A DNA stretch of 64,000 nucleotides from Schmidtea nova (taxonomy: Eukaryota): contig CM097883.1 in the NCBI GenBank assembly GCA_044892505.1, positions 360,344,001 to 360,408,000 of the forward strand, written 5' to 3'. The notes under the pieces are model-generated. The model was not told the origin of the DNA and ran no database searches. It saw only the letters and a program-made list of their open reading frames with translations. Both the position numbers and the translations under genes were made by a program. Position 1 is the first letter of the stretch. Each line of letters opens with the position of its first letter. Shown here one piece after another: positions 20,321-61,719 of this stretch.

Positions 20321-22195
20321 CTAATGGGATACCTGTGCTTGTTTTAAGGAACATAATAGTTTTATATTGGGCTCAATATTTGAAAGAGCAACTCGAAGTT
20401 CTTGGTCAAGGCCCTTCAAGCACGACCGCTTATCATTTTTTATTAAAACTAGAGTTGAAAAACTTTCTTCACATATGTACGTGGTTGAAAATGGGAGCAG
20501 AACTTCAATAGCCTTTTCGGAAATTCGAGGATATTCTTCCTTAACCGCAATCCAAAACGTATCCAATGAAACGTCGGAAAATTTTATTCTTAGCGTCCCA
20601 TCGTTCCTCAAGTCGAAAAATTCGTCTCGAATTTCAAGGGAAAGAGCTACTGTAGAATTTTCGGCATTCGGTGAAAAAGGATTTCGAATCCAATCGTATT
20701 GGTCTGTATTAATTATGTGAAAGTATTGGTGAAATTTCTGTTGTAGCAATGTTAAATGTTGTTCGGCCAAACGCAATATGATCTGCTTGTTTTTTCCTGC
20801 TTGTGCAATCCTTCCAATCGTCTGGTTGGTTCTTTGGTACATTTCTAGTGATCCTTGTTGTAACTCCGATTGCCAAAGATCAAGTTTCTGTTTGAATCGG
20901 TTCAATTTGTCGGAGCATGTCAACAAATTTTCATTTCGCCCTTGCATTTTTTTATTAAGTTCATTCAGGTGTTCAAATATGTCAGCCATATAGGCAAGTT
21001 TGGTCATCCAGTGATTATCTTGTAGGAGATTGTGTAATTCGGGCACATTTTGATTCAATAGAAAATCACTAACCTCTTCGCGAAGCTCAAATAGTCGTGC
21101 TAGAACTTTACCTCGGGACAACCAGCGTACTTCTGTGTGAAGTAATAAGGATTGATATTCCGATCCCATTTCTGCGTAGAGTATCCCAAAAATTCGCGAA
21201 TTCAAGGCTTTTGATTTAATTAAATTTATAATGCTGATGCATTCATTCATTGTTGCCAATAGTTCCGAAGGTAAGTTTTTAACCATCAAAGCTTCTCGAT
21301 GTATGCAGCAATGTGTAATTTGTATTGCCGGATTTTGTCGCTTCACACATGAGACAAACCCCTTTTTATAACCCATCATTGCCGCAGCGCCATCCGTGCA
21401 AACACTCATGCAATTGCTCCATTGAATACCATAGGTTTTGAAGAACTCATCAGTTACTTGAAAAATTTCCTCACCGGTAGTCCGCTCTGGAAGTTCTTTG
21501 CAAAACAAATAATGATCTTTTATGGACTCCTCGTCAACGAAACGTACAATACATATTAGTTGTGCTCGGTTTTTGATATCGGTTGATTCGTCAATCTGAA
21601 GAGAAAAATTCTCCGTCATTTTCAATTTTGTAATTAATGTTTTTAAAATATCGCTTGACATATCATCAATACGTCTTTTAACAGTATCAGCTGATAACGA
21701 AACTTTACTGACTTCATTAATTTCATTAGGCCCAAACATTAATCGAGTGATTTCCATGCATGCTGGTTTAATAAGGGTTTCGCCAATTGTATGTGGTTTT
21801 TTCTGACGTGCAATTAATTTTGCAACGTGGTTACTAGTTTCTAACGCTTTGTCAGAAATTGTAACGGACGATCTCATAAATTTCCTCTGTTTTAAATTTT
21901 GATTTAAAAGCCGCTGAAAATATTGTTTGTCCTTGTTGGCGCAATTGGGATGTTTTGATTTTAGATGGCGAATCAGTTTACTTGGCACCATTGCCTCGTT
22001 GGAAAGCTGTTCTCTGCAAATTACGCATTCTGGTTTCGGAGCCGCTTCTTCACCACACCATGAAAATCCGTATTGAATATATTCTGCATTGTATTGCCTT
22101 TTCACTAGCTTCGGTCTTTTTACATCATTGCTCGTGCTGGGTTCATCATCATTTGTCGATAAAGTTGAACATTCTTTACGCAAAAACTTGTCCAT
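20321..22195 (-). CDS. Buster-type hAT transposase, 624 aa, apparently intact
   Basis: BED finger (CVIC...HLKSKH), catalytic D in SLQIDESTD, D in CTDGAAAM, CxxH in HCCIH, E in TYICEESFS, C-terminal dimerisation region. Confidence 0.95.
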   Translation of the reverse strand: MDKFLRKECSTLSTNDDEPSTSNDVKRPKLVKRQYNAEYIQYGFSWCGEEAAPKPECVICREQLSNEAMVPSKLIRHLKSKHPNCANKDKQYFQRLLNQNLKQRKFMRSSVTISDKALETSNHVAKLIARQKKPHTIGETLIKPACMEITRLMFGPNEINEVSKVSLSADTVKRRIDDMSSDILKTLITKLKMTENFSLQIDESTDIKNRAQLICIVRFVDEESIKDHYLFCKELPERTTGEEIFQVTDEFFKTYGIQWSNCMSVCTDGAAAMMGYKKGFVSCVKRQNPAIQITHCCIHREALMVKNLPSELLATMNECISIINLIKSKALNSRIFGILYAEMGSEYQSLLLHTEVRWLSRGKVLARLFELREEVSDFLLNQNVPELHNLLQDNHWMTKLAYMADIFEHLNELNKKMQGRNENLLTCSDKLNRFKQKLDLWQSELQQGSLEMYQRTNQTIGRIAQAGKNKQIILRLAEQHLTLLQQKFHQYFHIINTDQYDWIRNPFSPNAENSTVALSLEIRDEFFDLRNDGTLRIKFSDVSLDTFWIAVKEEYPRISEKAIEVLLPFSTTYICEESFSTLVLIKNDKRSCLKGLDQELRVALSNIEPNIKLLCSLKQAQVSH

Positions 22196-22577
22196 ATTTA
22201 AAATTATATAAAGTAAATATGAATAAAATAATTTTATTATTACACGCCCAGGTACAAATATTATTAGTAATCGTAAAATATTTTAAATGTTATTTTAATT
22301 GTAATATTTATATATTAAAAATTATTCAAATTCAATATTTAGAATTGAGCGCTAGTCAAGTTATTTACAAAAATAATTATTTGAATATTTAAAATTATAT
22401 AAAGTAAATATGAATAAAATAATTTTATTATTACACGCCCAGGTACAAATATTATTAGTAATCGTAAAATATTTTAAATGTTATTTTAATTGTAATATTT
22501 ATATATTAAAAATTATTCAAATTCAATATTTAGGATTGAGCGCTAGTCAAGTTATTTAGAAAAATAATTTTTTGAAT
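22194..22577. repeat. 191-bp tandem duplication immediately upstream of the transposase ATG
   Basis: 22194-22384 repeated at 22385-22575 with few substitutions. Confidence 0.9.
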
Positions 22578-27429: not shown

Positions 27430-29220
27430 ATGAGAGCATATAGTTTATGGATTGGTTACTGTGATAAGGTGCTATCCAGTGGGAATTACCGCGTTGTCTA
27501 TTCATTTGAATTTCTCTATCAGAGTGTTCTTCAATATAGATATTTTATTAAATATTGTTTTTTATTGCATTTTAATAAATTTGTCTTGATTTTTATGATT
27601 GTATATTGTAATTTTTTGGGAGAATTTTGTACAGCTTATGATAATTGTTGACTTAATTGATTGAGGCAGTTGTAAATCTTTTTGTTTGCATGCTTATTGT
27701 ATATTTGCCCTGTAGGTCTTTGGCAATGAAAGTTTTTATTGATCGGTCTGATGTTTGCATATTGTCATTTATTATTTAATAATTTTATGATGCCGTTTTC
27801 ATGTACAAATAGTGGGTTAAATACTTATGGTTTGATTTATACATGTTATTTGTCAATCCCTTCCCCATTTTGATAATTAGTAGACGAAGAGTGGTACATA
27901 TATATTTATTCAACTATAAAATTAACAAAGTTATGGTCACGTGTGCTATTTTTTACATCAATACTCTTTACATTGAGTACTCCATCAACCATCAGCTGCT
28001 GTAATGTAGGAGGTTCCCAGTATGTCTAGTTTTAACAGTATGTGCTGAATTAATTACTATCAATATGTGTTGGGCTTTCGATGATCGCATGGGATTTCCT
28101 CTATTTTACAATTTGATTAAAATTTTAAAGATTTTTGTTCCAAAATTTATCGTAAGTTGATAAATTCATATAATTGCTTATAATTATATAAACTCCCTGT
28201 AAATTCCTTCAAATGTCTGATTTTTTCGAATTCTTTATAAAATTGCATATGGTATTTTATATTAAGAAATAAATATTATAATTTATCTGCTGGTAATTAT
28301 CAGTGGTAGTAATTCTAAGAAATTGCGAATGATATTCTTAAAGTCCGTGTACAGATAAAATATTTATTTGATAGAAAGAATATGTAAGAAGAAATATTTT
28401 TATTATTAATATTTAAAAATCTTTGCCTACACGGTAAAGCTCTGATTACCATTAATATGCGTTCTGTAGTTGTCTGAAACATTATCGAACTGATTTCAGA
28501 ATTGTCTACTAACATTAAATTAAACGGATCTTAGAAAGGAACTAGGACAAAATTTAAGTTCAACAACACGTTGGTGTTGTTGAACTTGGTTCAATAATGA
28601 ACTAGATTTTGATTCATTTAAACCACGATAAAATTGAGAATATCTAATCTGTTCACATATTCATGTGGATTTTCAATTCCCAAATACAGAATTTGTGCCG
28701 GCTGACCTTGATACTAATGCTGAGTTGTTGGTATCGATGGATTTTCTCGATGGTCTTGATTTTTAGGGCAATCCCACCCACATAAACAGATTCTCCCCGC
28801 TGATGCCTATGACTCGCCCCTAATTGTTTGTCATGTTGGTACTGCATCAACGTTGTAGACTAACGAGGCAGGTGAGCAACCTTGACGGCTACTATTCCCT
28901 CGTTTCATTTACGGGTTCACCACTGCCGATAGAAGGCCTGTGTTCGGATTTATTGTGGTCCCAATTATATTCCTTCACGTTATGCACTTGCATTCCTTAT
29001 TTACATTCATTAATCATTCAAACAACCAAAACAAGTCGAGTTTTTGATCATACACATTTATTTACCCAAAAATACGTTCGTATTGATAACATTCAGCAAT
29101 TGTTTTTCCGATAGACCACTTAGTAGATCTACTTCAATTCCTAGCCTCTCTGCATAGGCTCTTCTTTCTCTCCGTCATTTTGCTCCCAAACGGTTTCTCT
29201 TTTTAGTTCGTGATGGTAAG

Positions 29221-32189: not shown

Positions 32190-35082
32190 AGTTTCTATTT
32201 TAAGGGCTCCCACCATAAATCCGTGAACTCCTAGATTTAAGTCCACGTTGATACTGTGTAGGTCGTTGCAGGTTAAATATGCAGGTGAGCTATTTGGCAA
32301 TGACTTCACTATTTACACCTGCTCGGGTTCCTTGACCGATAGAAGGTCTATTCTCTCTGTTATATTATTACATGGTCTCTTTAGTTAGTCTATGTTTGTA
32401 ACAAAACGGAAAATCTTCATTAGTCAGTAAAATGTCAATTCAAGTCAACTAACAATATACATTTATTCTCTAATTACAACAAAGATTTGTTCCTCCCAAC
32501 ACATGGGAATCACCTCCATGAGTATGTCAAATTCGGATATGTTCTGCAAACTCGCTAACCTGTGCAGTTAATTGATTTGCGAATACCTTCTTTTGGTAGT
32601 GCCACCTTAAGCCGATTCTCTTTCGTTTGGAGCCAATATGAGTAGAACCGTTGTTTGAAGGTGGATGGGGGTAGTGCTTGGTGGTAATTCGGAAACTGGC
32701 TGTCTTACTGATGAAGTTGTGGGAATTTCTGCTGTAGCACCCACCCATTTGGAGCAAGTTATTGGACGGATGTATGACTTCAATTGTTCCCTTACGAACG
32801 CTTGGGACACTTGAGCTGCATGACAATTAAGGCTCTCCAAGAGCGTTCGGTATGCTGTATCTGTGTCCTCATATGATCTGGTGAGAAATATGATCTCTCT
32901 AATTCATGGTTCTGCACCGAAAATTTTGTGATGATCGCCCACATCAACTGGAATTCGGAATCCCTATCCTTTGACAAAGCCTTATGGCATTCACGCTTTG
33001 GGGGAGTCGTCGCAACAGCTTGTCTGGGCATCTTTTAGAAAAATTATTATTTATAATTAATTTGGTTTTTACGCGAAAATGTATGGGTTTTCACTCTCTC
33101 AATGAACGATCCGACTTATTTACGAATTTTATAAGTTCGCTGGTAATTCATTTAGGACGTTTATTTATTAGTGATTAGCTAACTCTTACTGCGATAATTG
33201 TATTCTTAACAATATTATAATGATAATTCAATGATGTTCTGGTCGACTTCATCATTCACACTAAAACTTTATTAACACAAGAAATTTTTTTTATTAAAAT
33301 CAATCATTAAAACACCCGATTAGATTGTACAATTTTGATTATATTATAGCCAGCGAATCATTGTGAGAAAATATGCGATTGACTCGCATTTCTCTGGATC
33401 GTTTGCAGGGATGGCAATCGAGAGGAGAAAGTGTTTCTGTGCCTCCCTTAATGGTCGGGGAGAGATTACGAATCAGAATCCTAGATCATTGAATGTCGAA
33501 CTTGGGATGAATCCCCAATATACTATTTTGTTCCTCATCCCTCTGCGATTCTTTACCACGGCGAACCACTGTGCATAACTCGCATGGTATTCTTCCTCAG
33601 GGTTCATCGGCAATCTCGGTCCACCTCGATACTAGATTTCGAGATAGTAAATGGACAACTAGTATTTCGTTTCGTCCTCCATCTCCGCATTTGAACATTT
33701 ACCGATCTGGCTATTTCTCGTGGAAGGACTTTTAGCTAACCTATTCCGCTTTGTCCGATTTAGAGCTTGTTGTCCTGCATCTAAAATATAAATAGTTGCG
33801 TAATGGTTGATATAATAAAGTTACCTGTTCGCTGCTTCGGCAAATGTCGTCTCTGAGTTATTATTAACTTGATTTATTGCTTGACGTTCGTTGAGGTTTA
33901 TCTATTCGATTTCATTTGACTTTCGATGCCTCAGCCTTGGAACTAATTCAGCTATTCCTTCAACACATTTTGGTGGATTCGATTCAGGCCTCACCCTGGC
34001 TGATTACCTTTTAATAGCTACCTCCTAGACCATACTACTTTCTTAATGGGACGTTTCTTCAAAATGAGTCGATCATACAATAAAATCTCTGTTTTATAAT
34101 TCGATAAATAATTCTCAGTTCCGTTTGGCTCTCTCATTTTTAATTGCTGTGTCCCTCATTATTTCCTTGTGGTGGTTATAAATTATCCCTTCTCCCCAAG
34201 GTTCATATTTAATTTATTCAATTAAGCAATTTCAACTCAATATACTATGAAACTCTATACAGCCCCCTCATACGACTAGCACCCTTGTGGCATGACACTA
34301 CTGAGGACTTCTTTACGAATTTTAATGGATAATTTTATGGAAAAACTTAATATCTCAAGTTCATCGAGGATTGCCCATTAAAATAAAAACAAAATCAAAG
34401 AATAATACCTTTATTGGTTATCAAATTAAACAAAGATTCTGAGCAGTCCGTCACAAAATTTGAATACACGAATGATTGTTTTAATGAAATACGCTAGACT
34501 AGTTGTTACAAACACTCTCTAAAAATGCTCACCCTCGACTGATTTTTGACTCCGTTACATCTATTTCACCATTCATTTCTCATTCAAACAACCAAAACAA
34601 GTCGAGTTTTTGATCATACACATTTATTTACCCAAAAATACGTTCGTGTTGATAACATTCAGCAATTGTTTTTCCGATAGACCACTTAGTAGATCTACTT
34701 CAATTCCTAGCACCCACGCATGCAGTTGACCAATCAGCGTCGTTGCTACGCATATTCTCGTGCTTTGTTTATAATTTTATAACTTGTTTATGATTTTAAT
34801 TCTTACAATTTCCGGTTATCCGGACCATAGTGAAAGTAATTATTTAATTGATTGCACTTTTATTTTAATTTTATTATTGAATATTTTAGAAATTATTCTG
34901 GATTTCTCGAAATTCTTATTTTATTCGCTATTGTTAATTTATTGTTTTACATTCTTTTTATTATCTGTTACCCTACTTATAGATTTTATCCCTCAATTTT
35001 GCTTTACTTGATAATTTAAGTTTATTTTCTTTTTAATTTATTTATTTTCTTCTCTATTTTAGGTTAGCTTATTAACCCAACA
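32190..35082 (-). mobile_element. Family E copy E3 (diverged)
   Basis: GCAGGTGAGC and CCGATAGAAGG block at 32280-32350; CCAATCAG at about 34730; acceptor followed by CCCAACA end; distant homologue of the E protein at about 33400-33650. Confidence 0.5.
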
Positions 35083-42882: not shown

Positions 42883-45487
42883 TTGGTAAATAAAATAGTT
42901 CATGATGAAAAATATTTAATTGGTTCATCAACACTTTAAATACAGATAACTTTTCTTTTCCAATTATTTTACAATGACAAAAATTTCAGAAACTGGTAAA
43001 TATGTGCTCCATTATTTTAAAAATTTTTAGTATTTAGAGTTGAAGTTCTTGTTAAAAAAATTTTTGAAATTTATCCAGAAATTAAAAATGAAATCTTAAA
43101 TTGTGCTATAGAAATCGACGCTGGTTTTTATAACTTGATATTCCTCGCCCAACTGTCGCAATCTACTTTCGAGTACTTTGACCCGCAACTTAGATTCTTA
43201 GGTCTCCTTTTTATAATCGCGGACTTTACTCACGCTCATCTAAAAGAAGAAAACTAGAATTAAAGTACACTATGGTTGTTACGGCCTTATGCTCCCTCCT
43301 ACCCTCGAGTGATATGTCGCTGTCAATCAAAAAGCGTTACACTGATCCTTCCGTTCCTCAAACATTCAGCATTCCGTCAATCAGCATCATACATGGCATC
43401 ATCACTCCAATCCGAGTACAAATTTCGACACAAACATTTATTTATTTTTATAATTATATAACACACAATTTTCACAATGTCATAGAGCTTCGAGAGAACT
43501 CTACCAATTCCTGATCATATTTTCGGTCCATCAGTCCCTTCCCGTCTGGTTGATAGATTTCGGGACACGGATCCCAGCAGAGATGGTCATTAAAGACGAA
43601 TAGTCTCCCATAGTCTCCCGTTGTCTTTCTCTTGGTGCTGCTCCATATTGATACTTCCAGGCGCATGAAAGTATGGCCGCGTCTCGCCGGTGTAGATACA
43701 TTGCGGCCGATCCATCAAGACATAACCGAGCCTGTAGAGATCAGGGCCCGTCATTGAATCGTTGGTCAAGATCCATCAGGGTTGGCGTTGCTGATTTTCG
43801 AACTGCAGAAACCATTGGATTGATTTTTTTGTTCGGGAAGCTCGGTAGCACAAGCCACTCTGGGTCGCCTTCCCACCTGTACATTGAATAAGCATGATGG
43901 CGATCGCGCAGCGACCTCCACGTGTTGGCGGACCCATGCTCTGAGATGTCGTCATGCTCTATTCAGGATACTGGCACGGGCCTTTTCAGCGCCTTTGATC
44001 TCCATCTTTCGGCTCTTGATGCGCAGCTTGCGTGTTGATCTTGTCTTACTCATCTAAAGGGTTATACTTGGTTTAATTTTTCGTGTATCGGAAGAAAAAA
44101 GGGTTCCGCATCTCATCATCATTCAATCTATTATTCGACCACATCCACAACGTACGATCTTAACTTGGATTACCTGCATTCTCCGTCATTGAGATTGGTT
44201 TACGTAAATAATCATTTAGTCCTTCGATTGACATTTATCGTATCGATCCTACACCAGTTTGTTGTTAGGTGTCGTAGGCTCACCCACGGTCACCATCGTC
44301 TCACCAAAAACTACTTGTGTTTCATCAACCATATGTATTTCGTATGAGACAGTAGTCATTGTATGCAGTACATCATGAGTTAACTCATCAGACCGTGGTT
44401 GGCTTATCACTGAGTGATCTAAATTTTTTTATTTTTATTTTTCAATCGTGATTTATTGGTACAATAATGATTATTTGTTCAACCATAATTCATTCAACAA
44501 GTTCTGATCATTTTCGACCATCATTTATTCAACACACTCTGATCGTCTTCAACCATTATTTACCCAACCAACAATGTTCATTTTTTCAGCTACTGTTAAT
44601 CCGACAAACAATGATCATATCCAAATTTAGTTTTTTTTACCTGTCGGGAACACATTCGACACCGGGGTTCGGACCTCGTTACTTAGAATGTCACACTCAT
44701 GAAACCTGCTATGACAGTTGGTGAAACATTAATTGAGTCTAGATGATGCCTACTCCAAATCGGGTTTTATATTCATGTTCCTCGCATATACTCACCCTAC
44801 CACATTATTTTATTCTTGTTGATCGATCTTAGTGGGGTGCTTAAGCCTTTAGGTTGTCTGGCTTGTACTGAGATTATTGCTGAACCACTTTACTCGCATT
44901 ACAGATTTGATACCCTATGTGCACCCATTTCCCCACAAATTGAATTTAGGACACTTATGGTCTCGCCGCATCAGCACCTCACATGAAAATGTGTTGTGCC
45001 GAGAGGCCGAGAATCCCGTCAGATCGACTGACCTTCGGGACAAAACTTATGCATTTTACAATCATGAGGGTTTACATAAATAATAACTATAACCAAACTC
45101 ACATACCTTTTATTTCAATCAGGTTCTCCAAGTACAATCTTGTTCTGGTCCACAACTAGTAAGAAGGATAGCTTACTAGTGAAGTAACACTTGGTAAAAT
45201 TTTGACGTTTTTGCTACTGGTTTTACTGCTGTATTTATACTGAATGACGTTGCTGGCCAGCCAATCAGAATTGAGCATGTGTGTGGATATTGATTACCTT
45301 TCACGTTTAGTGATTTTCTTTTGTGTATTTAATTTGGTGAGCTATTATTCATTTATTTATGATTCTTTTGTTTGCTTTTGTTAAATTTTAGATATTCCGT
45401 CAATATCCGCCTACGTCTGTCAGATTTTGGCTCCATCTGGGTGAGTTTTTGTATTGTTATTTTTATTTGATTTAATTCTTTTGTTAT

Positions 45488-46338
45488 TTTGGTGGGTGTG
45501 GCAACCCGTCCTGAGATGTGCAAGTGATAATGGATTTCATATTCTCGCTGAGCCCCCATTTATGACCATCGTTTGATCGAATAATCAATTGTAAAATCGG
45601 TGGCCGATAGAGATAAATTCTCTCCTGATAAATCCTCAGCATGTTTGGTGGTATTTGAATGTGCAAATTATCGGCGCCCGTTGTTGAATAATCAATTTTC
45701 CATAATGCATCGTTAGCTTCTCTATAGAACCTTACGATAATTTCTGTATTGAATTTAGACTCGTTAAAATTCATAATATGAAAAAAATTCTCTTTTAATC
45801 TTCGATCTAATTTCGGAAGAAAGCCTGGATAGATATAATGTGTTTGTATTTCATTGGTTAAACTATGATCCACTTTCAATACATAAACTGCAAAAATGTG
45901 ATGATAATCTAAATTTGGATGATAAATATTTATGGAAAAGTCTTGATCGATATGATGTGGAAATTTATCGCTTTTTGTTATTTTAAAATCATTTGTGGAC
46001 TTCGAATGGTGACCAAATAATATTTCGATAAACACAAATGCTAGAAGAAGAAAAAGATAACATTTCATATTTCAAAGAATTTTAATGAATTTTAATCAAC
46101 TCTCAAACTATATATTTTTAAATCAAAATATTTATACAATAATATTTAAACAAAATGTTTATGTAATTAATAACAGTTTTTAATCTAATAACAGTTTTAA
46201 AAATTTCAATAACAGTTTAAAATTTTATATTATTTTTTACTAAGATTGTTTTTGGAGTTAAATCGTCATTAAAATGACTTGTTGAAAATCTAATATCATT
46301 TGAGAGAATCTTCGATATCGGCTTTCTAGACCACTACA
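45488..46338 (-). repeat. 3' LTR (contains 194-aa ORF 45484-46068)
   Basis: Direct repeat of 52256-53106; I saw only three substitutions. Confidence 0.95.
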
Positions 46339-46349
46339 TCAGCCCCCAT
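46339..46349 (-). promoter_or_regulatory. Polypurine tract
   Basis: ATGGGGGCTGA immediately before TGTAG of the 3' LTR. Confidence 0.7.
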
Positions 46350-46555
46350 CGGAAGATGCGGAGCACATTTTGAAATACTATAATGTAGATACGTAATATA
46401 GTAGTTTAGTATATAATAATATGGTATTTTGTAGTGTCCAGAAAGTATTTGGAAAGAGTTGTGAATGAAATGGAAGAACCCGAGAAAGAATTGCGAAAGA
46501 AATTTAGGAAACCGAGAGAAAAAAAACTAATAGAACTTGGTGGAAAGTGATGCAA

Positions 46556-48174
46556 TTAATTTGAATAGATTCTTATTAGTCTGGTTGGTGAATCCGGTTT
46601 TTGATTAATAGAACGGACACGAACCCATTTGTTGTAAGTGACGGACTTTGGTTTATTTTGTGTTTGATTTGCTTTCCTCAAAATGGGTGGTAAACGAAGT
46701 ACGTCATTTGGTTCTGGGATAAACGGTATGTATTCAGATTTTTCCGTAATTTTGTTTTCTGCGTATGATATTTGAACAATCGGGTATGAAGGTGAGTTGT
46801 TGGAAAGATCGTCCTCAGTGGAATTGATAGGGTCATTATCGTTTATGTCGGAGTTCGGGATTATATCGGTTTGGGTCGAGAAATTATCAGGTGGAGGTTC
46901 ATCATCGAGCAAAACTAAAGCTGGTTTAAGACGGCAGAGGTTAAATGTTTGTGTAGAGTCGTTAACAATCACTTTCGCGTTGTTTTCTTTAATCTCGACG
47001 AGCTTGTAAGGTCCGGAATATCTTGGCTTTAAACTTGCATCGGTTATATTTCTAATATAGACGTGTGATGCATTTCGAATGTTTTTGGAATGTAAGGCTT
47101 ATAGGTGGTGGCGGAAGAGAATTCAGGATTAGTGTCGATTGATAAAAAATGGTCTCTAGCAATCGCGAGATCTTCCAAAGTAGGAGAGTTATCAAAGTCG
47201 ACAAGTTGACCGGGTAACGATGTATTTGTACCGAAAAGTAATTGAGCAGGTGATGATCCTGTAGTCCTAGAAGGTGTATTTCGCCAACCTAATAATACGA
47301 AAGGTAAAACCTTTGTCCAACCTTGTTGTTCAGAAAGAATGCCAAGAGAAGCTTTTAAAGTACGATGGAAACGTTCGACTAAACCGTTTGTTTGTGGATG
47401 ATATGCGGTAGTACGAAGATGTTGTATCCCAAGTTTAGCGGTCAAAGCTTGAAATAAGTTAGATTCAAACTGTGTTCCGCGATCACTGATGATCGACTTG
47501 GGAACTCCATATCGTGAAATCCAATTTTGAATTAGCGAAGTTGCGATAGTGTTAGAAGAAATGGTGCGTAAAGGAATGACTTCGAACCAACGAGTCTTGC
47601 GGTCGATCATGGTTAATAAGTAAGAAAAACCGCAGTCACTTGGGACTGGGCCGACGATGTCAATGTGTAAGTTTTCGAAACGGTTGCCAGTGGGATAATG
47701 AATTATTGGAGGTTTAGTGTGCTTAGTTATTTTAAAACGTTGGCATCCTATGCATTGTGCAACCCAGAGTTTAACATCATGTCTCATGTTTGGCCAAACT
47801 ACACACGTGTGTAATAGATTAAAAGTGGCTGAGGAACCTGGGTGGTGCGTGTTGTGGATAGACAGAAAAGCCGGTTTTCTCATGGAGTCATTCAAGATTG
47901 GGCGAAGAGTGCCAGGAAGAGATGAGTCGTAGTGAATTTTGTCTTTGATTATATGTTTGTCGCCAAATTTCGAAATATCAATGGCATCTGGAGGATTATT
48001 TTGGAGTTCGTCGATAGAAAATAAAGGACAGTGGATAATTGCGTTTACATTTCGTGAAAGGCAATCAGCTATAATGTTATCACTGCCGGCGATGTGGTAT
48101 ATTTGGCAAGAAAATTCGCTAATATAGCTAATCTGGCGTTGTTGTCTCGGAGAAGGGTCTTTCATTGAGAACAA
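46556..48174 (-). CDS. Integrase (frameshifted near 47044)
   Basis: HHCC zinc motif (HNTHHPG...CIGC), HIDIVGP, ISDRGTQFES, NGLVERFH; C-terminal GPY-type segment in the next frame. Confidence 0.95.
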
Positions 48175-48482
48175 GTAAACAAGTGGCTTATGGTCTGTAT
48201 GGATGCTAAAAAGACGGCCCTCGAGTAAATGCTTAAAATGTTTAAACGACTGGTAAATAGCGAGAAGTTCGCGGTCGAAGCTGAATATTTTTGATGTGGT
48301 GAGGTAAGTTTCTTTGAGTAAAATTCTAGTTGCTCTGGGATGTAACCGTTTATCTGGTGCAAAACGGCACCGATTGCTATGTTTGACGCGTCTGTGGTTA
48401 AACGTAATGGCAAATCTCCTCGTGGATAATGCAAAGTCTGGATGTTTGAAAGGGCTGTTTTAGCATGCTCAAAAGCGAGCAA
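48162..48482 (-). CDS. RT connection/RNase H fragment
   Basis: LRLTTDASNIAIGAVL...EFYSKKL; frameshifted from both neighbours. Confidence 0.9.
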   Translation of the reverse strand: MLAFEHAKTALSNIQTLHYPRGDLPLRLTTDASNIAIGAVLHQINGYIPEQLEFYSKKLTSPHQKYSASTANFSLFTSRLNILSIYSRAVFLASIQTISHLFTCSQ

Positions 48483-48502
48483 CGAAGTATCGTTCCAAGG
48501 AA

Positions 48503-49963
48503 TTATAGATTTCTTTGGTCTAGAACAGTAACCAGAAAGAGGTGAAAGAATTTCTGAAATTTAGGAATAAAACGGTGGCAATTGTTTACTGTTCCCAGAA
48601 AACTCTGAAGTTGAGTAACAGTTTGTGGAAGAGGAAACTTAGATATAGTATCTAGTCTGTCGGATGGTGGACTGACGCCTTGACCCGAGATAATGTGACC
48701 TAAAAAACGGACTTCTTCTTTAAAAAATAAACACTTATCTAAATTAATTTGTAGGTTATTGGAAGAAAGTGCGCAAAGAACTGCATCTAAATGTTTTTTG
48801 TGTGTTTCCGCATCCTTAGAACCAATGAGGATATCGTCAATATAAGGAATTGCGAATGGTAAATCCATTAAAATATGGTCGATGTGTCTTTGAAAGGTTT
48901 GAGCGGAATTTCTAAGACCAAACGGCATGAAAACGTACTCAAAAAGTCCGATAGGTGTTAAAACTGCGGTTTTTTCCACGTCAGATTCTTTAACTGGGAT
49001 TTGGTGATAGGCCTTAACTAAGTCGATAGTTGAAAATATTTTGGCCTCGGTAAGTCTGTACAAAATGTCGTTTACTAAAGGCATAGAATATGAGTCGTGA
49101 ACCGTAATCATATTTAAACGACGATAATCTCCACAAGGTCTGAAAGTTCCGTCTTTCTTTGGTACGAGATGAAGTGGTGAAGACCATGGAGATTTAGATC
49201 TTTTTATAATGCCTTCGTTCAACAAAGTAGCGAATTCGGAGCGAACAAAATCTAGTTTTTCGTTCGAAAGAGGGCGTACTTTACAACGTACCGGAAGAGA
49301 GTTTGTGGTGTTGATGGTATGGCAGTAAGATGCTACAGAGACTTGCTTTCGTAAAGGCATTGTCTGTGAAAATGTGTATTTATTTAAAATGTCTGTAGCA
49401 ATCTTTGGATGATTGGGTTTAATGGCAGTAGATACAGAAAAGTCAGATGAGTCGGAAATGTTGAGTTTTTTTGTGTCAATGACTAAAGACGAATTTGTGT
49501 GCGAATGTGTTCTCAAAAGGCGTGAACGACAATCGACCAACAAATTGTGTGAACTCAAAAAGTCTGAGCCAAGAATGGGATGGATAACGTCAGCGACACA
49601 GAACTTCCATATAAAAGATTGATTCAAAGAAGGAAGAACGAAATTTGCTGAAAAAGAACAGTGTGTATTCACCATGGTTCCGTTGGCGGCTTTCAATGTA
49701 TAAACGGAATCATCGCAAAGAGATTCATATTGTAAAGGAAGAATGGAGAGACTGGATCCTGTGTCAACAAGAAAATCGAGAGTACTGCAAAAGTTCGGAG
49801 CAACGCTGAAAGAAGGGGATTCAGCTCTCACTAGAAATAAATCGAGTGCAGGAGGTAATTTGCCATCAACTTCAGCCGCAACGAGTGATGGCATTACAAG
49901 TTTTTTTGAATGTTGTTTGGAGAAGATGGTGGGGAATTGTAGGATTTGCAACCTACAATGCAT
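48503..49963 (-). CDS. Pol: aspartic protease and reverse transcriptase
   Basis: FLVDTGSS; SPWSSPLHLVPKKDG.FRPCGDYRRLN; FSTIDLVKAYHQI; MPFGLRNSAQTFQR; YIDD. Confidence 0.97.
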   Translation of the reverse strand: MHCRLQILQFPTIFSKQHSKKLVMPSLVAAEVDGKLPPALDLFLVRAESPSFSVAPNFCSTLDFLVDTGSSLSILPLQYESLCDDSVYTLKAANGTMVNTHCSFSANFVLPSLNQSFIWKFCVADVIHPILGSDFLSSHNLLVDCRSRLLRTHSHTNSSLVIDTKKLNISDSSDFSVSTAIKPNHPKIATDILNKYTFSQTMPLRKQVSVASYCHTINTTNSLPVRCKVRPLSNEKLDFVRSEFATLLNEGIIKRSKSPWSSPLHLVPKKDGTFRPCGDYRRLNMITVHDSYSMPLVNDILYRLTEAKIFSTIDLVKAYHQIPVKESDVEKTAVLTPIGLFEYVFMPFGLRNSAQTFQRHIDHILMDLPFAIPYIDDILIGSKDAETHKKHLDAVLCALSSNNLQINLDKCLFFKEEVRFLGHIISGQGVSPPSDRLDTISKFPLPQTVTQLQSFLGTVNNCHRFIPKFQKFFHLFLVTVLDQRNL

Positions 49964-50835
49964 TTGTTTGCTTTATCCCCAAATCGTGCGTGATAAATGC
50001 ACTTATCAATGATTTTGAGGGTAGCTGCTTTGTTTCGCCAGCCACATCCTATGTTGCAACAATTTGCTTTCGTTCCATATTTAGTATGATAAAAGCAAAT
50101 GTTTGAATAAGCCGGGGATTTGGAACGTCGTCGGTCAAACGCATTGGAAAGTGATGAATTTCGAGACGGAGATTTATGACGTTCCAAAAGCAAAATACGA
50201 TCGGTAAGGTCGCGAATGGCGCAAAGAAGAGCATTCTCTGTTGTTGATGGGATCGGCGGGCTTGCGATAAGAAGGCTGTTGACAGAAGAGCCTGGTGTAC
50301 GACCTAACGGAACAATTTCATGAATTTTGTCCGCCATTTTTGCTAATTCGTGTATATCTACGGGAGACGTTAAAGCAAGTATCTGTTGTGTGTGTGTCGG
50401 AAGTACACTTAAAAAGAACTGGCGTAGCATGTTTTGGTCGGGTGCTGTCCCATTTTGCATTTGTTCGAGGTCTGTAAAAGCCTTCTGCAAAAGTTCTGTC
50501 GGCTTACAACTTCCTAAAGATTGGGCTTTGAAATATTTTGAGAATATTTCATGTTTGGGAACTTTAAATAAATCCAACAGTCCTGTGCTGAGTTCCTCAA
50601 AAGGAGTTAAAAAGGTTTTTTGCGTTGTGCGGCGAATAACGGCAGAAAGGCGGCCTAAATGATCCTGTGGGATGAGAGATAATATTCTATAGAATTTATC
50701 TCTTGAAGAAGTAACGCCGCAACTTTCTAACAGGGCTTCGAGTGTGAGCAACCAAGTTGATGGGGATTGGTTCTCATCTAAAAAGAACGGACAATTAATA
50801 TTTTGTCTAGAGTTACTGTCGGAAGAAGCAGCGCC
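49894..50835 (-). CDS. Gag, lacking its own ATG upstream of the conserved core
   Basis: CPFFLDENQSPSTWLLTLEALLESCGVTSSRDKFY is the typical N-terminal core of this Gypsy clade; two C-terminal CxYHxx(Y/F)GxKAxxC motifs; frame open back to the TGA at 50836-50838. Confidence 0.9.
   Translation of the reverse strand, partial: GAASSDSNSRQNINCPFFLDENQSPSTWLLTLEALLESCGVTSSRDKFYRILSLIPQDHLGRLSAVIRRTTQKTFLTPFEELSTGLLDLFKVPKHEIFSKYFKAQSLGSCKPTELLQKAFTDLEQMQNGTAPDQNMLRQFFLSVLPTHTQQILALTSPVDIHELAKMADKIHEIVPLGRTPGSSVNSLLIASPPIPSTTENALLCAIRDLTDRILLLERHKSPSRNSSLSNAFDRRRSKSPAYSNICFYHTKYGTKANCCNIGCGWRNKAATLKIIDKCIYHARFGDKANKCIVGCKSYNSPPSSPNNIQKNL
49900..49906 (-). promoter_or_regulatory. -1 ribosomal frameshift slippery site A AAA AAC (gag-pol)
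   Basis: Canonical X XXY YYZ heptamer two codons before the gag stop; pol is in the -1 frame. Confidence 0.75.
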
Positions 50836-52836
50836 TCAAACATTTCTTTGCTTTTTAGGCAAAGGTTTGGGCTTTTTATCATCGTATTCGTTGTCATCAT
50901 CGATACTTGATGGTGCGCCGCCATACAATGGTACATGACAGAATAGCAAGGAATCCGAACATATGTTAGAACTTAAAAGTGAGTCCTGATTCCTTAATAT
51001 TGCGCCATTATAAGATATGTATGTCGGTCCCTCGTACGACAAGCGCTTGCAAATTAATGTAGATAGTTTTGATATAGTCGTGTCCTGGGCTAGTTTAAAG
51101 TGGAATGTGAAGGAGGAAACCCTTACGAATATTGACAAAAACCTATAGGATATGCGACGTAGACTAAAATTCGGAAGATTGGGCGGTCCCGTTAATTTTA
51201 ATAATAATGATATAAATAATAATAATATATAATAATAGAAATTTAATATAACAATAAAATATTCTAACATTGTAACTCCGCAGCGATAATGGGGGCTGAT
51301 CTTCTGTTCCGAAAAGAGAAAAAAATTTGTTAATATTGGAGTTCCTGTGACTTTTGAATTTAATGGAGCTTCTAATAGGTAATTATCGTTGTTGGTGTTA
51401 AAGTTCATTTTCGAGGGAGCTGGTGAAAAAATTACGATAGATTTGATGTTATTGCAATTTTTCGTGTTGATTTGTGTTGCTTTCGATGTTTGACCAATTG
51501 AAATGTATCCCTGTGACTTAACACCTGACGGTGTGCAAGGAAACTGCTTTTGAAAGCCATTAATCAACTGTTGAGCGACTTTGGAATCCGTTTGAATGAG
51601 AGAAAAATTTGGATTTACTGGCATTGAATTTACAGGTTTTGGATTCTGCTGAGAAATCGATCGATTTATCGCTTCTAATATTCGAAAGTCGACGTTAATC
51701 ATTGAAAGAACTGTAGAATTTTGATTCTGTGGAGCGACTGGAGATGAACTTATTGTTATTGCTGACAGACTACTATTCGTTGAATTGTTAACGATTAAAG
51801 ACTGATTTGAAACTGTAGACTTGCTAGCATCTGATATATGATTGTTAGCTTGCTTGGATTTATCACTTTGTAAGATTAAATTCTGTTGTATTAAATGTAA
51901 AGCCTGTCGAATGTTAGTGGCTGAGTCTTGTGAACTGGTTGGAATTCTTGTCATTTGCGCACAGTCTAATGGAATTTGAGAGTTTTGATTTACTTGCAAT
52001 GGGGTTGGAATTATAGGAATTGACGGTTGATTTTGTCGATTAATTAAATGCATCGGAGGAGGTGGTGGTTGCATTGCAGCTGCAATTCGCTTAACGACTT
52101 CAATTTGACTAAGCGTACTTGCATTATTAGAATTAGATGAGTTTGATTGAAATGAATTATTCATTCTTGCTGGATGGTGTGAGACTTGGGGACGAAATGT
52201 TTGATTTCCGTCTTGAATTGAAGATTGACCATTGATGTTTTCTTCTGACACCATTTTTGATGGGTGTGGCAACCCGTCCTGAGATGTGCAAGTGATAATG
52301 GATTTCATATTCTCGCTGAGCCCCCATTTATGACCATCGTTTGATCGAATAATCAATTGTAAAATCGGTGGCCGATAGAGATAAATTCTCTCCTGATAAA
52401 TCCTCAGCATGTTTGGTGGTATTTGAATGTGCAAATTATCGGCGCCCGTTGTTGAATAATCAATTTTCCACAATGCATTGTTAGCTTCTCTATAGAACCT
52501 TACGATAATTTCTGTATTGAATTTAGACTCGTTAAAATTCATAATATGAAAAAAATTCTCTTTTAATCTTCGATCTAATTTCGGAAGAAAGCCTGGATAG
52601 ATATAATGTGTTTGTATTTCATTGGTTAAACTATGATCCACTTTCAATACATAAACTGCAAAAATGTGATGATAATCTAAATTTGGATGATAAATATTTA
52701 TGGAAAAGTCTTGATCGATATGATGTGGAAATTTATCGCTTTTTGTTATTTTAAAATCATTTGTGGACTTCGAATGGTGACCAAATAATATTTCGATAAA
52801 CACAAATGCTAGAAGAAGAAAAAGATAACATTTCAT
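50836..52836 (-). CDS. ORF0, 666 aa: signal peptide, LTR-encoded domain, low-complexity stalk, hydrophobic segment, ubiquitin-like domain (LYGG), acidic/basic tail
   Basis: Uninterrupted 2-kb frame in AT-rich DNA; MKCYLFLLLAFVFIEILFG; hydrophobic run from aa 523; aa 567-640 align with ubiquitin. Confidence 0.75.
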   Translation of the reverse strand: MKCYLFLLLAFVFIEILFGHHSKSTNDFKITKSDKFPHHIDQDFSINIYHPNLDYHHIFAVYVLKVDHSLTNEIQTHYIYPGFLPKLDRRLKENFFHIMNFNESKFNTEIIVRFYREANNALWKIDYSTTGADNLHIQIPPNMLRIYQERIYLYRPPILQLIIRSNDGHKWGLSENMKSIITCTSQDGLPHPSKMVSEENINGQSSIQDGNQTFRPQVSHHPARMNNSFQSNSSNSNNASTLSQIEVVKRIAAAMQPPPPPMHLINRQNQPSIPIIPTPLQVNQNSQIPLDCAQMTRIPTSSQDSATNIRQALHLIQQNLILQSDKSKQANNHISDASKSTVSNQSLIVNNSTNSSLSAITISSSPVAPQNQNSTVLSMINVDFRILEAINRSISQQNPKPVNSMPVNPNFSLIQTDSKVAQQLINGFQKQFPCTPSGVKSQGYISIGQTSKATQINTKNCNNIKSIVIFSPAPSKMNFNTNNDNYLLEAPLNSKVTGTPILTNFFLFSEQKISPHYRCGVTMLEYFIVILNFYYYILLLFISLLLKLTGPPNLPNFSLRRISYRFLSIFVRVSSFTFHFKLAQDTTISKLSTLICKRLSYEGPTYISYNGAILRNQDSLLSSNICSDSLLFCHVPLYGGAPSSIDDDNEYDDKKPKPLPKKQRNV
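52242..52253 (-). promoter_or_regulatory. Primer-binding site, tRNA-Leu type
   Basis: TGGTGTCAGAAG starting 2 nt after the 5' LTR end. Confidence 0.85.
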
Positions 52837-53106
52837 ATTTCAAAGAATTTTAATGAATTTTAATCAACTCTCAAACTATATATTTTTAAATCAAAATATT
52901 TATACAATAATATTTAAACAAAATGTTTATGTAATTAATAACAGTTTTTAATCTAATAACAGTTTTAAAAATTTCAATAACAGTTTAAAATTTTATATTA
53001 TTTTTTACTAAGATTGTTTTTGGAGTTAAATCGTCATTAAAATGACTTGTTGAAAATCTAATATCATTTGAGAGAATCTTCGATATCGGCTTTCTAGACC
53101 ACTACA
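52256..53106 (-). repeat. 5' LTR
   Basis: Starts TGTAGTGG on minus; TATA-like AAATATATAG about 45 nt upstream of the ORF0 ATG. Confidence 0.95.
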
Positions 53107-53694: not shown

Positions 53695-54159
53695 TCACAA
53701 CCGGAGATCTTGATCAATGATATCAAGAGTTGAAATGAGAAGGCTCCATGACAGTCCGTATTGATTGATTTCCGGTGCTGACAAATAATCCATTAATCGA
53801 GATTGATTGTGATCCAATGTATTGATTTGTAGATTTTTAGAGTTAGTCATTTCCGATTTGTCTGGATTGTATATTAATATTGATCCAGTTGTTGACAAGC
53901 ATCTTCCAGTTTGTACAGCTTCTTTTCGCATTCCAGCAGCGAGACATTTCTGCAATCTACAGAACTGGCAATTGTTTCTTCTTTGAATATCGACTTCATA
54001 ATCTCCACTAGAGTGGCACTGATAATTGTTGTCATTTGATGAAAACGAGTCACTGTGAATGTCTTGGGTGAACTGTGGTGAATTATCAATCATTAAACAC
54101 TGGCCGAATGTCGTTGAGTTGTTAATGGGGTATATCGAATCATTGTTAGCTGTTTGCAT
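53695..54159 (-). CDS. Nuclear hormone receptor exon, NR2F/COUP-TF-like, with degenerate DNA-binding domain
   Basis: [41 protein letters not shown] (COUP-TF: CQYCRLKKC..VGMRREAVQRGR); finger 1 cysteines absent; no LBD seen. Confidence 0.7.
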
Positions 54160-54899
54160 TTTTTGTTTGTGATCAGCGTGAATATGAAAAAAAATGTAAA
54201 TATTAAAACAAGTCTATTAATTTTTACTCCATTTAATAATTACTTAAATTAAATTAATTAATTTAAAAAATAAAAGAAATTGATAAAATTGAATAATTAA
54301 TCTAAGGCACTACAAGCTATACAATTATTGAAAATAATATCCAACAATTGCAAAAAAACTTGAAATATACAGTGTCAAAATTGAAATCAATAATGTAACT
54401 CAAATTAAGATATCGTATTATAGAGAATAAGTTTTCAAGGATATTGATGTAATTAAATGTTAAAACAATACTTGAACACTTATGAAAAAGTTGAAGTGCA
54501 CAGTGTGCAAAAACTTAAAATCAATAATAAAAGAAACTTTTATATAGAAACTTGTAGAGGATAATTTTTCAAATAAAATGAGCTATAAATTTCTTGAAAA
54601 TAATTTCAAATATGTATGATAAACTTGTAGTTCACAGTATAACAAAAATGAAAAATCGATATTATTACAAAAGTTTTAAATCATTTTGTAAAGAATAGTT
54701 TTTCTGATAGACTGAGATATAAATCTCATGAAAATAATTTCAAGCACTTGTGAAAGGTTGATGTGCAATTGTTGGGGTTGTTATAATCACAGAAAATAAA
54801 TTTAAAATTGCACAAATCAATAAAAAATATAAAAATTGGAAAAATAATAATTAATGTTCAAACATTAATTAAAAATTTACAAAAAATTAAAATAAAGTT

Positions 54900-58959: not shown

Positions 58960-61471
58960 TCGCCCCTTCAATATTTAAGGAATCAGCAATTTCACTTTCA
59001 ATTGCAATAATTGATATTACTGAGACGTTCTTGAGTCATTGAAGTTCTCAGGTGGTTTTTGATTATTTTTAATTTTGAAAAACTTCGCTCTTCAGATGCA
59101 ACAGATACTGGAACTGTCAGTAAAAGTTTTAAACTTGTGGCGACATTTGGAAAAGAAGTCTCCAAGTTGTATTTGCATAAATATTTATGAGTTCTTCGGG
59201 CTGCTTTCTGTCTTTTATGATAATTTTTAGAGAAATTAACTCTTGATATAATTCTACGCCACTGATATCACAAGATTCACCATCTTTAAATTTATTATGG
59301 AGATCGAAACAACTTTTTTTATTTCCTCATGTTCCATATCAATAAATTTGTATAGAAATCCAAAACATTGTTCGAAATTCGACAAAGTTTCAAAACGGGT
59401 GGTAAGAGATGAAATAGCTGTATATAGTATTACACAGAAAAAATTAATTTGAAAATGTTCTTTTGGAGTAAATTGAATATCTTCATCTCCTTCATAGCTA
59501 AATTGTTTTTGGTGATGTTGGCGACGTACACTAATTTCAGCAGGAAAATCCGGTTCTGTTTCAAGTGCTTTACAAAGTTCATTAGAAATCTGCAAATAAT
59601 TTTCGAAACTTTCGTCATTTCTAATGCTTTTGAAAAATTTCAAAACTTCCTTAATTGATTCAGCACACGAACTGATATTCCAAGAAACTTTCTGCATCAT
59701 TTTGCTAATAAAATCTAACTTTTCCAAGATTTCGTACCATATTATTATTGAAGAAATAAATTTATAAGATTTAAGTTTCATTGCCAAACATTCAGCTTCA
59801 TGTCGAACTGTTGGCATTGAAGATTCCTCAGCTATTTCTATAAGGCTGTCATAAATTTCACCTAATTCATTTCGCAGTGGTCTAATCGCTTTAATTCTTG
59901 CTTCCCATCGAGTTTCACTAACTTGTTTCAATGTTAAAGATTTTACATTTTTCTTTAAAACTTGCCATCTAAATGGGGATCCACTGAAAAAGTTGTATAT
60001 TACAGATACATTACTGAAAAAATCCACCGTTGAAAACGAAACATTAGCTGCATCATTAATGGCCAAATTTAATGTATGCGCGTTGCATGGCATAAACAGA
60101 GCTCGTGGATAATTGTCCAAAATTCGTTTTTGCAATCCTTTATGTTTTCCGGACATATTAGACCCATTATCGTATCACTGGCCCCTCATATCGTTAATAT
60201 TTAATTCAAGATAGTTTAACTTTTGAATTAAGAAGTCGTAAAAAGATTCCAGTACATTTTTCAGCTTGATAAAAGCCAATGGAATTTTCTCTTACTTCAA
60301 CTTCATAATTTTTAATATGTACATACCTAATAATCATTGTAATTTGCTCGACATGTCCAGTGTCCGGCGTACAGTCCAAAATGACTGAAAAATATTTTGC
60401 CTCTTTTATTGATGTTAATATATATTTTTGAATTTGGGTTGCAAGGATAGTGATTATTTCATTTTGAAAGCGATTTCCCAGGTAATGTGGCATGTGGTTC
60501 TTTAAAGCGATTGGTTCTTGTTCGCGTTTTATGTGGTCTGCCATTATATCATCAAATTTTCCTATCATTTCAATTGCTTTCAGAAAATTTCCATTAATTT
60601 TTTCGTACAATTTGCTGGAAGAACCTCTAAAAGCTAAACACTGTCCTGCTAGAAATTGTACGACAGATATCATGCGCCTGACAATTTGACACCATCGTTT
60701 TTTCTCGGCGTCATAATACCGTTGCATATTCTTATCAATTGTAGTTTTTCTTTTTAAATTTAATTCCAATTTTTTCAAACAGGTGCAATTTTCGATGTGC
60801 AGCGATGTTTTTTCGTGACGAGATAAGTTGTCAGATATGTGTTGCCAATCGTTGAAGCCTTCATTAACTAATTTTATTTCTTGTTTGCCAAATAATTTAC
60901 AACAGAAGCAAAATGTGGCATCATTTTTTGGAGAATAGATTAACCACTCACGATTAAATTTTTCACCATTTGGCAGTTTTCTATAGAAATAAACCTTTGA
61001 AAATAATCTTCCAAATTCATTTAGTGGATATGTAGATGGTATATTTTGAATAGGGCCTTTTTCAATTAAAATATCCAGCATTTTATTGGTAAGTGTTAAA
61101 GGCCAGCAAGCTGAATCATTTAGTTCTATACACATAGCAAAATATTCTTCATCAATTTCAGTGATATCGTCGATATTTGTAACTGCAATATCTCCTATTT
61201 CATCATTACTACTAATATTGTCATTATCATTTGTATTTTCGGCAGATAATTCATTTTCATTGGAAAAAAATTCACTGCTTGGATTTGCTTGGCTACTGCA
61301 AGCATTTTGCATTTCTGGAGGTTTTTCCAAATATTTGGTTAGTGAACCAAAGATTTTTTTAGCAACATGTTGTTTTTCTTCTCGCTTTCTTTTATACTGT
61401 GCTCCAGACAATCTTTTCGTTTTTCTTCCAGTCATTCTTAAGCCTTTTACTAAAATGTTTAAAAATATCAA
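58960..61471 (-). pseudogene. Frameshifted hAT transposase
   Basis: WLIYS...FCFCCKLF (TTF zinc finger), FSVILDCTPD, PCNAHTLNL, TRWEAR, VASEERSFSKLKIIKNHLRTSM; split across at least three frames. Confidence 0.92.
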
Positions 61472-61719
61472 TAACGATTTATATTGAAATTAATTTATAA
61501 AATTAAATTCATTACCTTTTTCAACCTTTTGTAACAAAGCGTTGGGTGAGGCGGTGAGGGAATCTGCCCAAGCGCTTTCCGAGTTCGAATAGGGTTTTAT
61601 TGCCACGCAGCTGAGACGCTTGCCGTGCTATAGACAGACAGGTAAATCACATATTATAACACACACACATACACACGCTCCCAAATTACCTACAGCCAGG
61701 TAGAGGCTCTACCGTAGAG

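Follow-up and report, generated by a model that had tools for sequence, protein, structure and literature searches.

The window analysed here, 64,000 nt of Schmidtea nova DNA, contains on its minus strand an open reading frame, ORF0, that starts with the ATG at 52836, runs for 666 codons and stops at 50838-50836, immediately before gag. An earlier note had described ORF0 as a type I membrane glycoprotein placed before Gag, comparable to the glyco-Gag of MLV, and the question is what such a frame does at this position and where its parts come from. The described architecture was borne out: ORF0 has a hydrophobic N-terminus (KD19 up to 1.9), a middle part rich in S/T/N/Q/P (∼50% of residues over aa 195-500), a further hydrophobic stretch (aa 526-546) and, at aa 565-640, a ubiquitin-like domain (UBL). 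The real finding, however, is larger than first flagged. The LTR of this retrotransposon carries an exchangeable, host-derived leader cassette, placed in front of a UBL-Gag that is predicted to be membrane-tethered.

The features of the element are collected in the table. Its LTRs, primer-binding site (PBS), polypurine tract (PPT), target-site duplication (TSD; 4 bp, TAAC) and pol order identify it as a young Ty3/gypsy LTR retrotransposon. The Pfam domains of pol are RVT_1, RT_RNaseH, Integrase_H2C2 and rve, in this order, while PR was recognised by its motif in the sequence; relatives of Pol are gypsy-type, with identity up to about 50% across most of the query. The LTRs end in AAAA, not CA, and their subtype lacks a 44-nt segment with TATA/Inr-like motifs found in other types. 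The PBS TGGTGTCAGAAG is presumably of the tRNA-Leu type. The window copy itself is broken, as a private stop precedes gag and pol is fragmented; in six other copies pol is a single frame of 1137-1139 codons. Residues 1-194 of ORF0 are encoded within the 5' LTR, and are repeated in the 3' LTR at 46068-45487. From the LTR, the ORF0 frame runs across the LTR end and the PBS.

Table. Features of the window element, in window coordinates
Feature	Position	Strand	Remarks
Ty3/gypsy element	53106-45487	-	852-bp LTRs, PBS, PPT, TSD
5' LTR, 852 bp, TGTAGTGG...CCATCAAAA	52255..53106	-	849/852 bases identical to 3' LTR
Captured host exon 1 (5' UTR + start codon), in LTR	52828..52871	-	91% to host gene L133
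Predicted signal peptide, ORF0 aa 1-19	52780..52836	-	hydropathy only
Captured host exon 2: signal peptide, Ig-like domain, beginning of second Ig-like domain, aa 3-190	52266..52829	-	host gene L133
Primer-binding site TGGTGTCAGAAG	52242..52253	-	translated in frame within MVSEEN
S/T/N/Q/P-rich stalk	51319..52245	-	91-92% to one exon of host gene L150 (G000:C1:585.74 Mb)
Pyrimidine tract-CAG, possible splice acceptor	51304..51325	-	upstream of TM, at 3' junction of captured stalk
Predicted transmembrane segment (TM) YFIV..LLL, aa 526-546	51199..51261	-	KD19 2.4; then K..RR
Ubiquitin-like domain (UBL), ends LYGG	50917..51144	-	aa 565-640; beta-grasp model
In-frame stop, ORF0/gag boundary	50836..50838	-	private to window copy; other copies continue into gag
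gag, DUF7041-like capsid region + Cys/His motifs	49894..50835	-	frame = ORF0 frame
pol (PR-RT-RNase H-IN)	46556..49972	-	four pieces in window copy
Polypurine tract	46339..46350	-	sequence
3' LTR, second cassette copy	45487..46338	-	195-codon frame, stops just past LTR

Elsewhere in the window we found DNA-transposase-like ORFs, which we take to be of the hAT type, and a zf-C4 nuclear-receptor exon (20321-22282, 59254-61489 and 53695-54213), the latter lying closely before the 5' LTR in the same orientation. In addition, 142-bp direct repeats (98%) at 29004-29145 and 34570-34711 surround 5.7 kb that possibly represent another element.

Related copies were sampled from genome G000, where 129 loci were taken by internal similarity or by the PBS pattern; the latter has 141 exact matches in G000, of which only part were read. 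With the window added, and eight duplicates and one locus without a PBS removed, the set comprised 121 loci, 78 of them belonging to the family of the window element. Past the PBS, most family copies are 90-98% identical, and the oldest 84-88%. While the internal body is common to the family, the LTRs share only their first 40-330 bases and are wholly different beyond that. This variable part encodes nine different host N-termini among the 78 copies: NOMO (25), histidine acid phosphatase (AcP; 24, and one leader-only copy), PCMT (9), RNF103-like (4), the Ig-like type of the window (3), tetraspanin (3), claudin-like (2), LRR (1) and epoxide hydrolase (EH; 1), with the last three types represented by just one or two degraded copies. 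The AcP, PCMT, NOMO, LRR and EH cassettes were named by Pfam, which supported tetraspanin and claudin weakly; the RNF103 label comes from Atlas (0.89, a lead only), and the Ig-like label from Atlas features and the fold of the host protein. The cassette is deleted in L015, L038 and L108, and L035 retains the AcP leader alone, in frame. In the LTR of L027, a PCMT cassette is followed by more captured sequence and internal PBS-like repeats.

Matches to host genes indicate that the cassettes are the spliced 5' ends of host mRNAs. We located host sources in the genome for the Ig, NOMO and PCMT cassettes, and also for the stalk. The captured exon 2 of the window type is 98% identical over 564 bp to the host gene L133 (G000:C1:90.99 Mb), and the 108-bp GT..AG intron that follows the start codon of L133 is precisely absent from the LTR cassette. 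The host gene extends past the point of capture, and arrays of its paralogues are found at other loci. The long PCMT cassette fuses host pieces lying 45 kb and 12 kb apart, with two short 5' introns gone, and its hydrophobic leader is already present in the host gene. Capture of NOMO included part of the host 5' UTR, as the cassette begins ∼40 bases before the host ATG, and short shared words join it to a remnant of the PCMT cassette that it overwrote. Microhomology is seen at the Ig, NOMO and PCMT junctions. For the RNF103-like cassette, a host source gene was not recognised among the protein-level matches in the genome, and no homologue of the Ig cassette was found among longer proteins.

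Two features of the host genes may be mentioned here. One of the three host PCMT genes (L143-L145, G000:C2:155.1-155.2 Mb) carries a hydrophobic extension at its N-terminus, which PCMT enzymes do not usually have. Paralogues of the Ig cassette source form tandem arrays of Ig-like genes of 251-283 codons at G000:C3:157.1-158.1 Mb and C2:402-403 Mb (L135, L136), and the Atlas neighbours include fasciclin-3-like and allorecognition proteins.

The N-terminus is hydrophobic in all eight cassette sequences scored, covering seven sources, although the PCMT leader is just modestly so; the tetraspanin and EH leaders were judged by eye, not scored. The anchor of epoxide hydrolases normally leaves their domain cytosolic.

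The capture slot ends ∼10 bases before the PBS. The RNF103-like and long PCMT cassettes terminate within the residues that close the LRR cassette and, together with the join between NOMO and PCMT, this means that captures overwrite one another in one slot. The cassettes are also exchanged between element bodies. On a tree of 56 bodies, from which 22 redundant or truncated copies had been left out, 20 cassette changes are required against a minimum of 10, and cassettes replace one another in succession. Moreover, L013 and L023 are flanked by matching TSDs, yet have an AcP 5' LTR and an Ig 3' LTR; L015, again a single insertion with matching TSDs, combines a 5' LTR with the cassette deleted and an Ig 3' LTR. 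These mixed LTRs suggest intermolecular strand transfer or gene conversion.

Captures beside the PBS are widespread in the genome. In a plain sister family (L083 and 22 loci), the LTRs are ∼170 bp long and Gag starts with the ATG that overlaps the PBS, corresponding to the ATG at 52254 in the window; its member L083 has gag-pol in one frame. Therefore, any capture beside the PBS falls in the Gag frame. Sister families take up non-secretory host pieces (TPR, PH_LRR1) after the PBS, which means that capture is not restricted to ER mRNAs and that the bias towards leaders is specific to the LTR slot. In the element L162, which shares the PBS, TPR repeats, presumably OGT-like, directly follow the PBS ATG (L162:3088-3492), and in L051 a PH_LRR1 domain is found at the same place (L051:1504-2490). 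In addition, short-LTR elements with the same PBS (18 loci, among them L127:1504-2577 and L042) continue from the PBS ATG in frame into host-like sequence; it has no Pfam match, and we assume that it resembles the N-terminus of ZSWIM8.

The frame from the leader through the PBS, stalk and TM is conserved. The host coding frame is the same as the PBS/stalk frame in 66 of the 73 typed copies, and the matching frame is that of the majority for eight of the nine sources (for the claudin-like type, in one of two copies); taking the six multi-copy types alone, such agreement has a chance probability of 0.0014. Indels were compared in 57 aligned bodies, after removal of four duplicates and of 17 copies that were truncated or rearranged. 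Between the PBS and +1400, all ten shared indels were in frame, compared with 5/17 of the private ones (p=4e-4), and within the stalk alone the counts were 5/5 and 4/14 (p=0.011). In the non-coding start of the LTR only 9/42 of the shared indels were in frame, and the cassette windows of this test contained zero shared indels. The earlier note had described a signal, ectodomain, TM and cytoplasmic UBL-Gag in one polypeptide; this is indeed one selected frame, as 41 of 149 similarity matches fall in open frames of 899-951 codons and the shared indels keep frame, with the topology being predicted. The decay of the stalk in copies with gag intact, named in the earlier note as the refuting result, was not seen among the copies examined.

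For the 39 open copies, pooled pN/pS from non-independent pairs was 0.64 (0.47-0.95) in the stalk, 0.29 in the TM and 0.28 in the UBL. The TM confidence interval reaches 1.0, and one close pair gives 1.43 (0.47-4.0) for the stalk, on which constraint is weak. In the cassettes, pN/pS was 1.1-1.6 for AcP, PCMT and RNF pairs and 0.3-1.1 for NOMO. The RNF cassettes have common in-frame deletions of 48 and 93 nt that spare the leader. Taken with the frame counts and indels, this suggests that the frame and leader are kept and most of the cargo is drifting. For the Ig cassette against the host gene pN/pS was 0.22-0.41, so that the Ig cargo may not be a pure passenger, although the host branch contributes to this value too.

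The stalk matches a host gene that has no signal peptide and whose protein relative is P0002; the gene has no Pfam match, and within 6 kb we recognised no downstream exons of it. The stalk had been noted for its many sequons, of which 11 are present. This is not above what composition predicts (shuffle mean 7.6, p=0.12), and the corresponding stretch of the host exon has 14; we therefore rejected sequon enrichment, as the count matches composition and the sequons were inherited from the host. The suggestion of an envelope-like ectodomain was likewise not supported, since what the earlier note called a "complex domain" is host sequence that was captured and can be replaced, and the stalk was taken from an exon of a host protein that lacks a signal peptide. 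In the older relatives L152, L153 and L157, ∼630 extra bases are found between the stalk and the TM.

In all 39 open copies, KD19 of the TM is at least 2.26. It is encoded by TAT/ATT-rich DNA, of variable length in older relatives, in which hydrophobic runs and in-frame slippage arise easily. As stand-alone evidence, the hydrophobicity of the TM was rejected, since 83 stop-free runs with KD19 of at least 2.2 occur in the six frames of the AT-rich window, and it does not go beyond chance. Still, the unit TM-KLTGPP-UBL is found in relatives with identity as low as 73%. The UBL matches Pfam ubiquitin with E=0.002, below the cut-off, and its beta-grasp model, of low confidence (pLDDT 62), matches ISG15, ubiquitin and SUMO with TMq about 0.75. 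Its Gly-Gly is kept in 63 of the 67 parsed copies. No clear host source of the TM or the UBL was found in similarity searches of the genome, and the search for TM-UBL-Gag homologues found none. Stalk-TM-UBL compared with 1.84 billion protein representatives gave one match, a host-type stalk protein.

Downstream of the TM, the first methionine lies ∼110 aa into the capsid region in six of the seven long-frame copies; Gag has no usable AUG of its own. We consider it rather probable that Gag is made only as the tail of a membrane-tethered precursor, whose start codon and signal peptide are provided by swappable captured host leaders. The precursor would be a single-pass type I protein, with the order leader, lumenal spacer, TM, cytosolic UBL(GG) and Gag, and the start codon and ER leader would be host mRNA 5' ends residing in R/U5, towards the 3' end of the LTR. 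Reverse transcriptase, soon after being primed at the PBS, would switch templates at microhomologies and thereby pick up leaders, each of which would be copied into both LTRs; new captures would overwrite old ones and be reshuffled among bodies, and only captures with an in-frame leader would propagate. The leader would direct the ribosome and the element RNA to the ER, with the stalk entering the lumen and the TM stopping transfer, so that UBL-Gag remains cytosolic. A host protease of the deubiquitinase type would then cut after the Gly-Gly and free Gag. As UBL-Gag would be tethered until this cleavage, we propose the membrane as the assembly site. Element RNA translated at the ER may be packaged beside secretory mRNAs, feeding further captures, and the cargo domains would be largely passengers. 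We infer the targeting, topology, cleavage and transcript start of the precursor.

A further-reaching reading, which we put forward tentatively, is that the LTR is an evolved capture slot. With the PBS inside the Gag reading frame, reverse transcription would sample secretory mRNAs of the host at their 5' ends, with selection keeping good targeters and so yielding a changing repertoire of leaders and ectodomains. If so, the leader repertoire may decide the membrane compartment, the cell type or a surface disguise, and the element would have a self-diversifying membrane-tethered Gag, a route towards envelope-like function without an env gene.

Alternatively, the precursor could reach the plasma membrane, where host-like ectodomains (Ig, LRR, tetraspanin, claudin) would serve cell contact, particle transfer or immune masking, with host conflict driving their turnover. 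Several cassettes are indeed cell-surface folds, they follow one another along the tree, the Ig cassette has pN/pS below 1 against its host gene, and PMC11952523 describes envelope-less elements that spread between cells by way of a TM protein. However, the commonest sampled cassettes, NOMO, AcP and PCMT, are fragments of ER, lysosomal or enzyme proteins that are cut mid-domain and have pN/pS near 1, and a search of the element for an env family in Pfam, a fusogen motif or an env homologue found none. We regard surface display as unlikely.

Somewhat less likely still, the cassettes provide just an in-frame start and a 5' UTR. Leaders would then be enriched because ER-bound mRNAs are co-packaged, the TM would have no topological role, and the UBL would free Gag anywhere. 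The missing AUG of Gag, the weak leader of PCMT and the repeat-derived TM, at chance level taken alone, all agree with this. On the other hand, a leader without a stop-transfer segment would put Gag in the lumen, the TM-KLTGPP-UBL unit persists in distant relatives with the TM hydrophobic in every open copy, and sister families capture non-secretory mRNAs.

We consider it improbable that the functional Gag mRNA is spliced, be it at the acceptor near 51304, with translation from M523, or across the TM, the long ORF then being minor or incidental. In favour of splicing, the CAG of the acceptor is kept in 67/67 parsed copies, so that spliced forms may exist, and M523 is also found in the older relatives L159 and L161. 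Yet the ATG of M523 is present in just 5 of the 39 open-frame and 16 of the 57 parsed copies, which does not support a start at M523 as a general route. The AG after the TM is displaced by one base from one main variant to the other, so that a TM-skipping junction would lose the frame; neither splice alternative can be general. In addition, the stalk upstream of the acceptor keeps frame. Four sets of contigs of uncertain kind gave even coverage and no GT-AG joint across the TM, which speaks neither for nor against splicing.

Returning to the tethered precursor fed by captured leaders, its parts can be compared with those of known systems. Coding sequence inside an LTR is known from MMTV sag and HIV nef, which are fixed U3 genes expressed from spliced RNAs and not fused to Gag. 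A ubiquitin-like unit as a host-protease cleavage signal within a polyprotein is known from the ubiquitin insertions of pestiviruses, which are RNA viruses. An errantiviral or retroviral env was considered and rejected, as no env family was found in Pfam and stalk-TM-UBL lies 5' of gag and is fused to it. LTR-mediated retroposition, as outlined in PMC5131818, copies host mRNAs at microhomologies with loss of introns and yields multi-gene chimeras, the retrocopies being internal chimeras between discontinuous LTR elements. The window family shares with this account the capture at microhomologies, the intron loss (Ig and PCMT cassettes) and the chimeras. Unlike the retrocopies described there, its captures lie within both LTRs of elements that bear gag-pol, in one recurrent slot, and are always a 5' end with a leader, selected in frame with Gag.

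As with MLV glyco-Gag in the account of PMC5120145, the family extends Gag at its N-terminus, in frame, by a part that includes a membrane segment and is predicted to enter the secretory pathway. The analogy drawn in the earlier note does not go much further. Glyco-Gag is described as a type II protein with Gag outside, starting at an upstream CUG and accessory to normal Gag (PMC5120145). By contrast, the window family is predicted to be type I with cytosolic Gag (a leader, then the TM and basic residues), has no separate Gag AUG, carries a host-derived and variable extension, and has UBL-GG between the TM and Gag. For Ty1, PMC3945221 describes retrosomes nucleated by SRP and the ER, with Gag entering the lumen and then being retrotranslocated. 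Co-translational ER targeting of the RNA of an LTR retrotransposon, and the ER as assembly site, would be common to both, as we infer for the window family, but here the borrowed leader and stop-transfer would hold Gag cytosolic and tethered. The MDG1 group, in the description of PMC11952523, has a separate FAST-like TM protein of 63-107 aa, sORF2, upstream of gag. The window family is likewise an envelope-less gypsy with a TM product before gag, although its TM is within the Gag polyprotein, behind an ectodomain of ∼500 aa. The literature searched, which covered few subscription papers, held no description of host leaders serially captured in LTRs in frame with Gag.

In the reading favoured here, the family relies on translation starts and ER-targeting leaders taken again and again from its host, and a single genome offers nine natural replicates of this capture. 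This bears on the membrane assembly of retroelements, on the entry of host sequence into LTRs, and on how membrane or envelope-like functions may arise from captured parts and a repeat-born TM. Moreover, the LTRs have spread fragments that combine a promoter with a signal peptide, from at least nine host genes, across the genome; three of the cassettes had 97, 100 and 56 protein-level matches in it, some of which are host exons or paralogues. Such scattered fragments can mislead gene annotation, and may give rise to secreted fragments, or to small RNAs that target the genes of origin.
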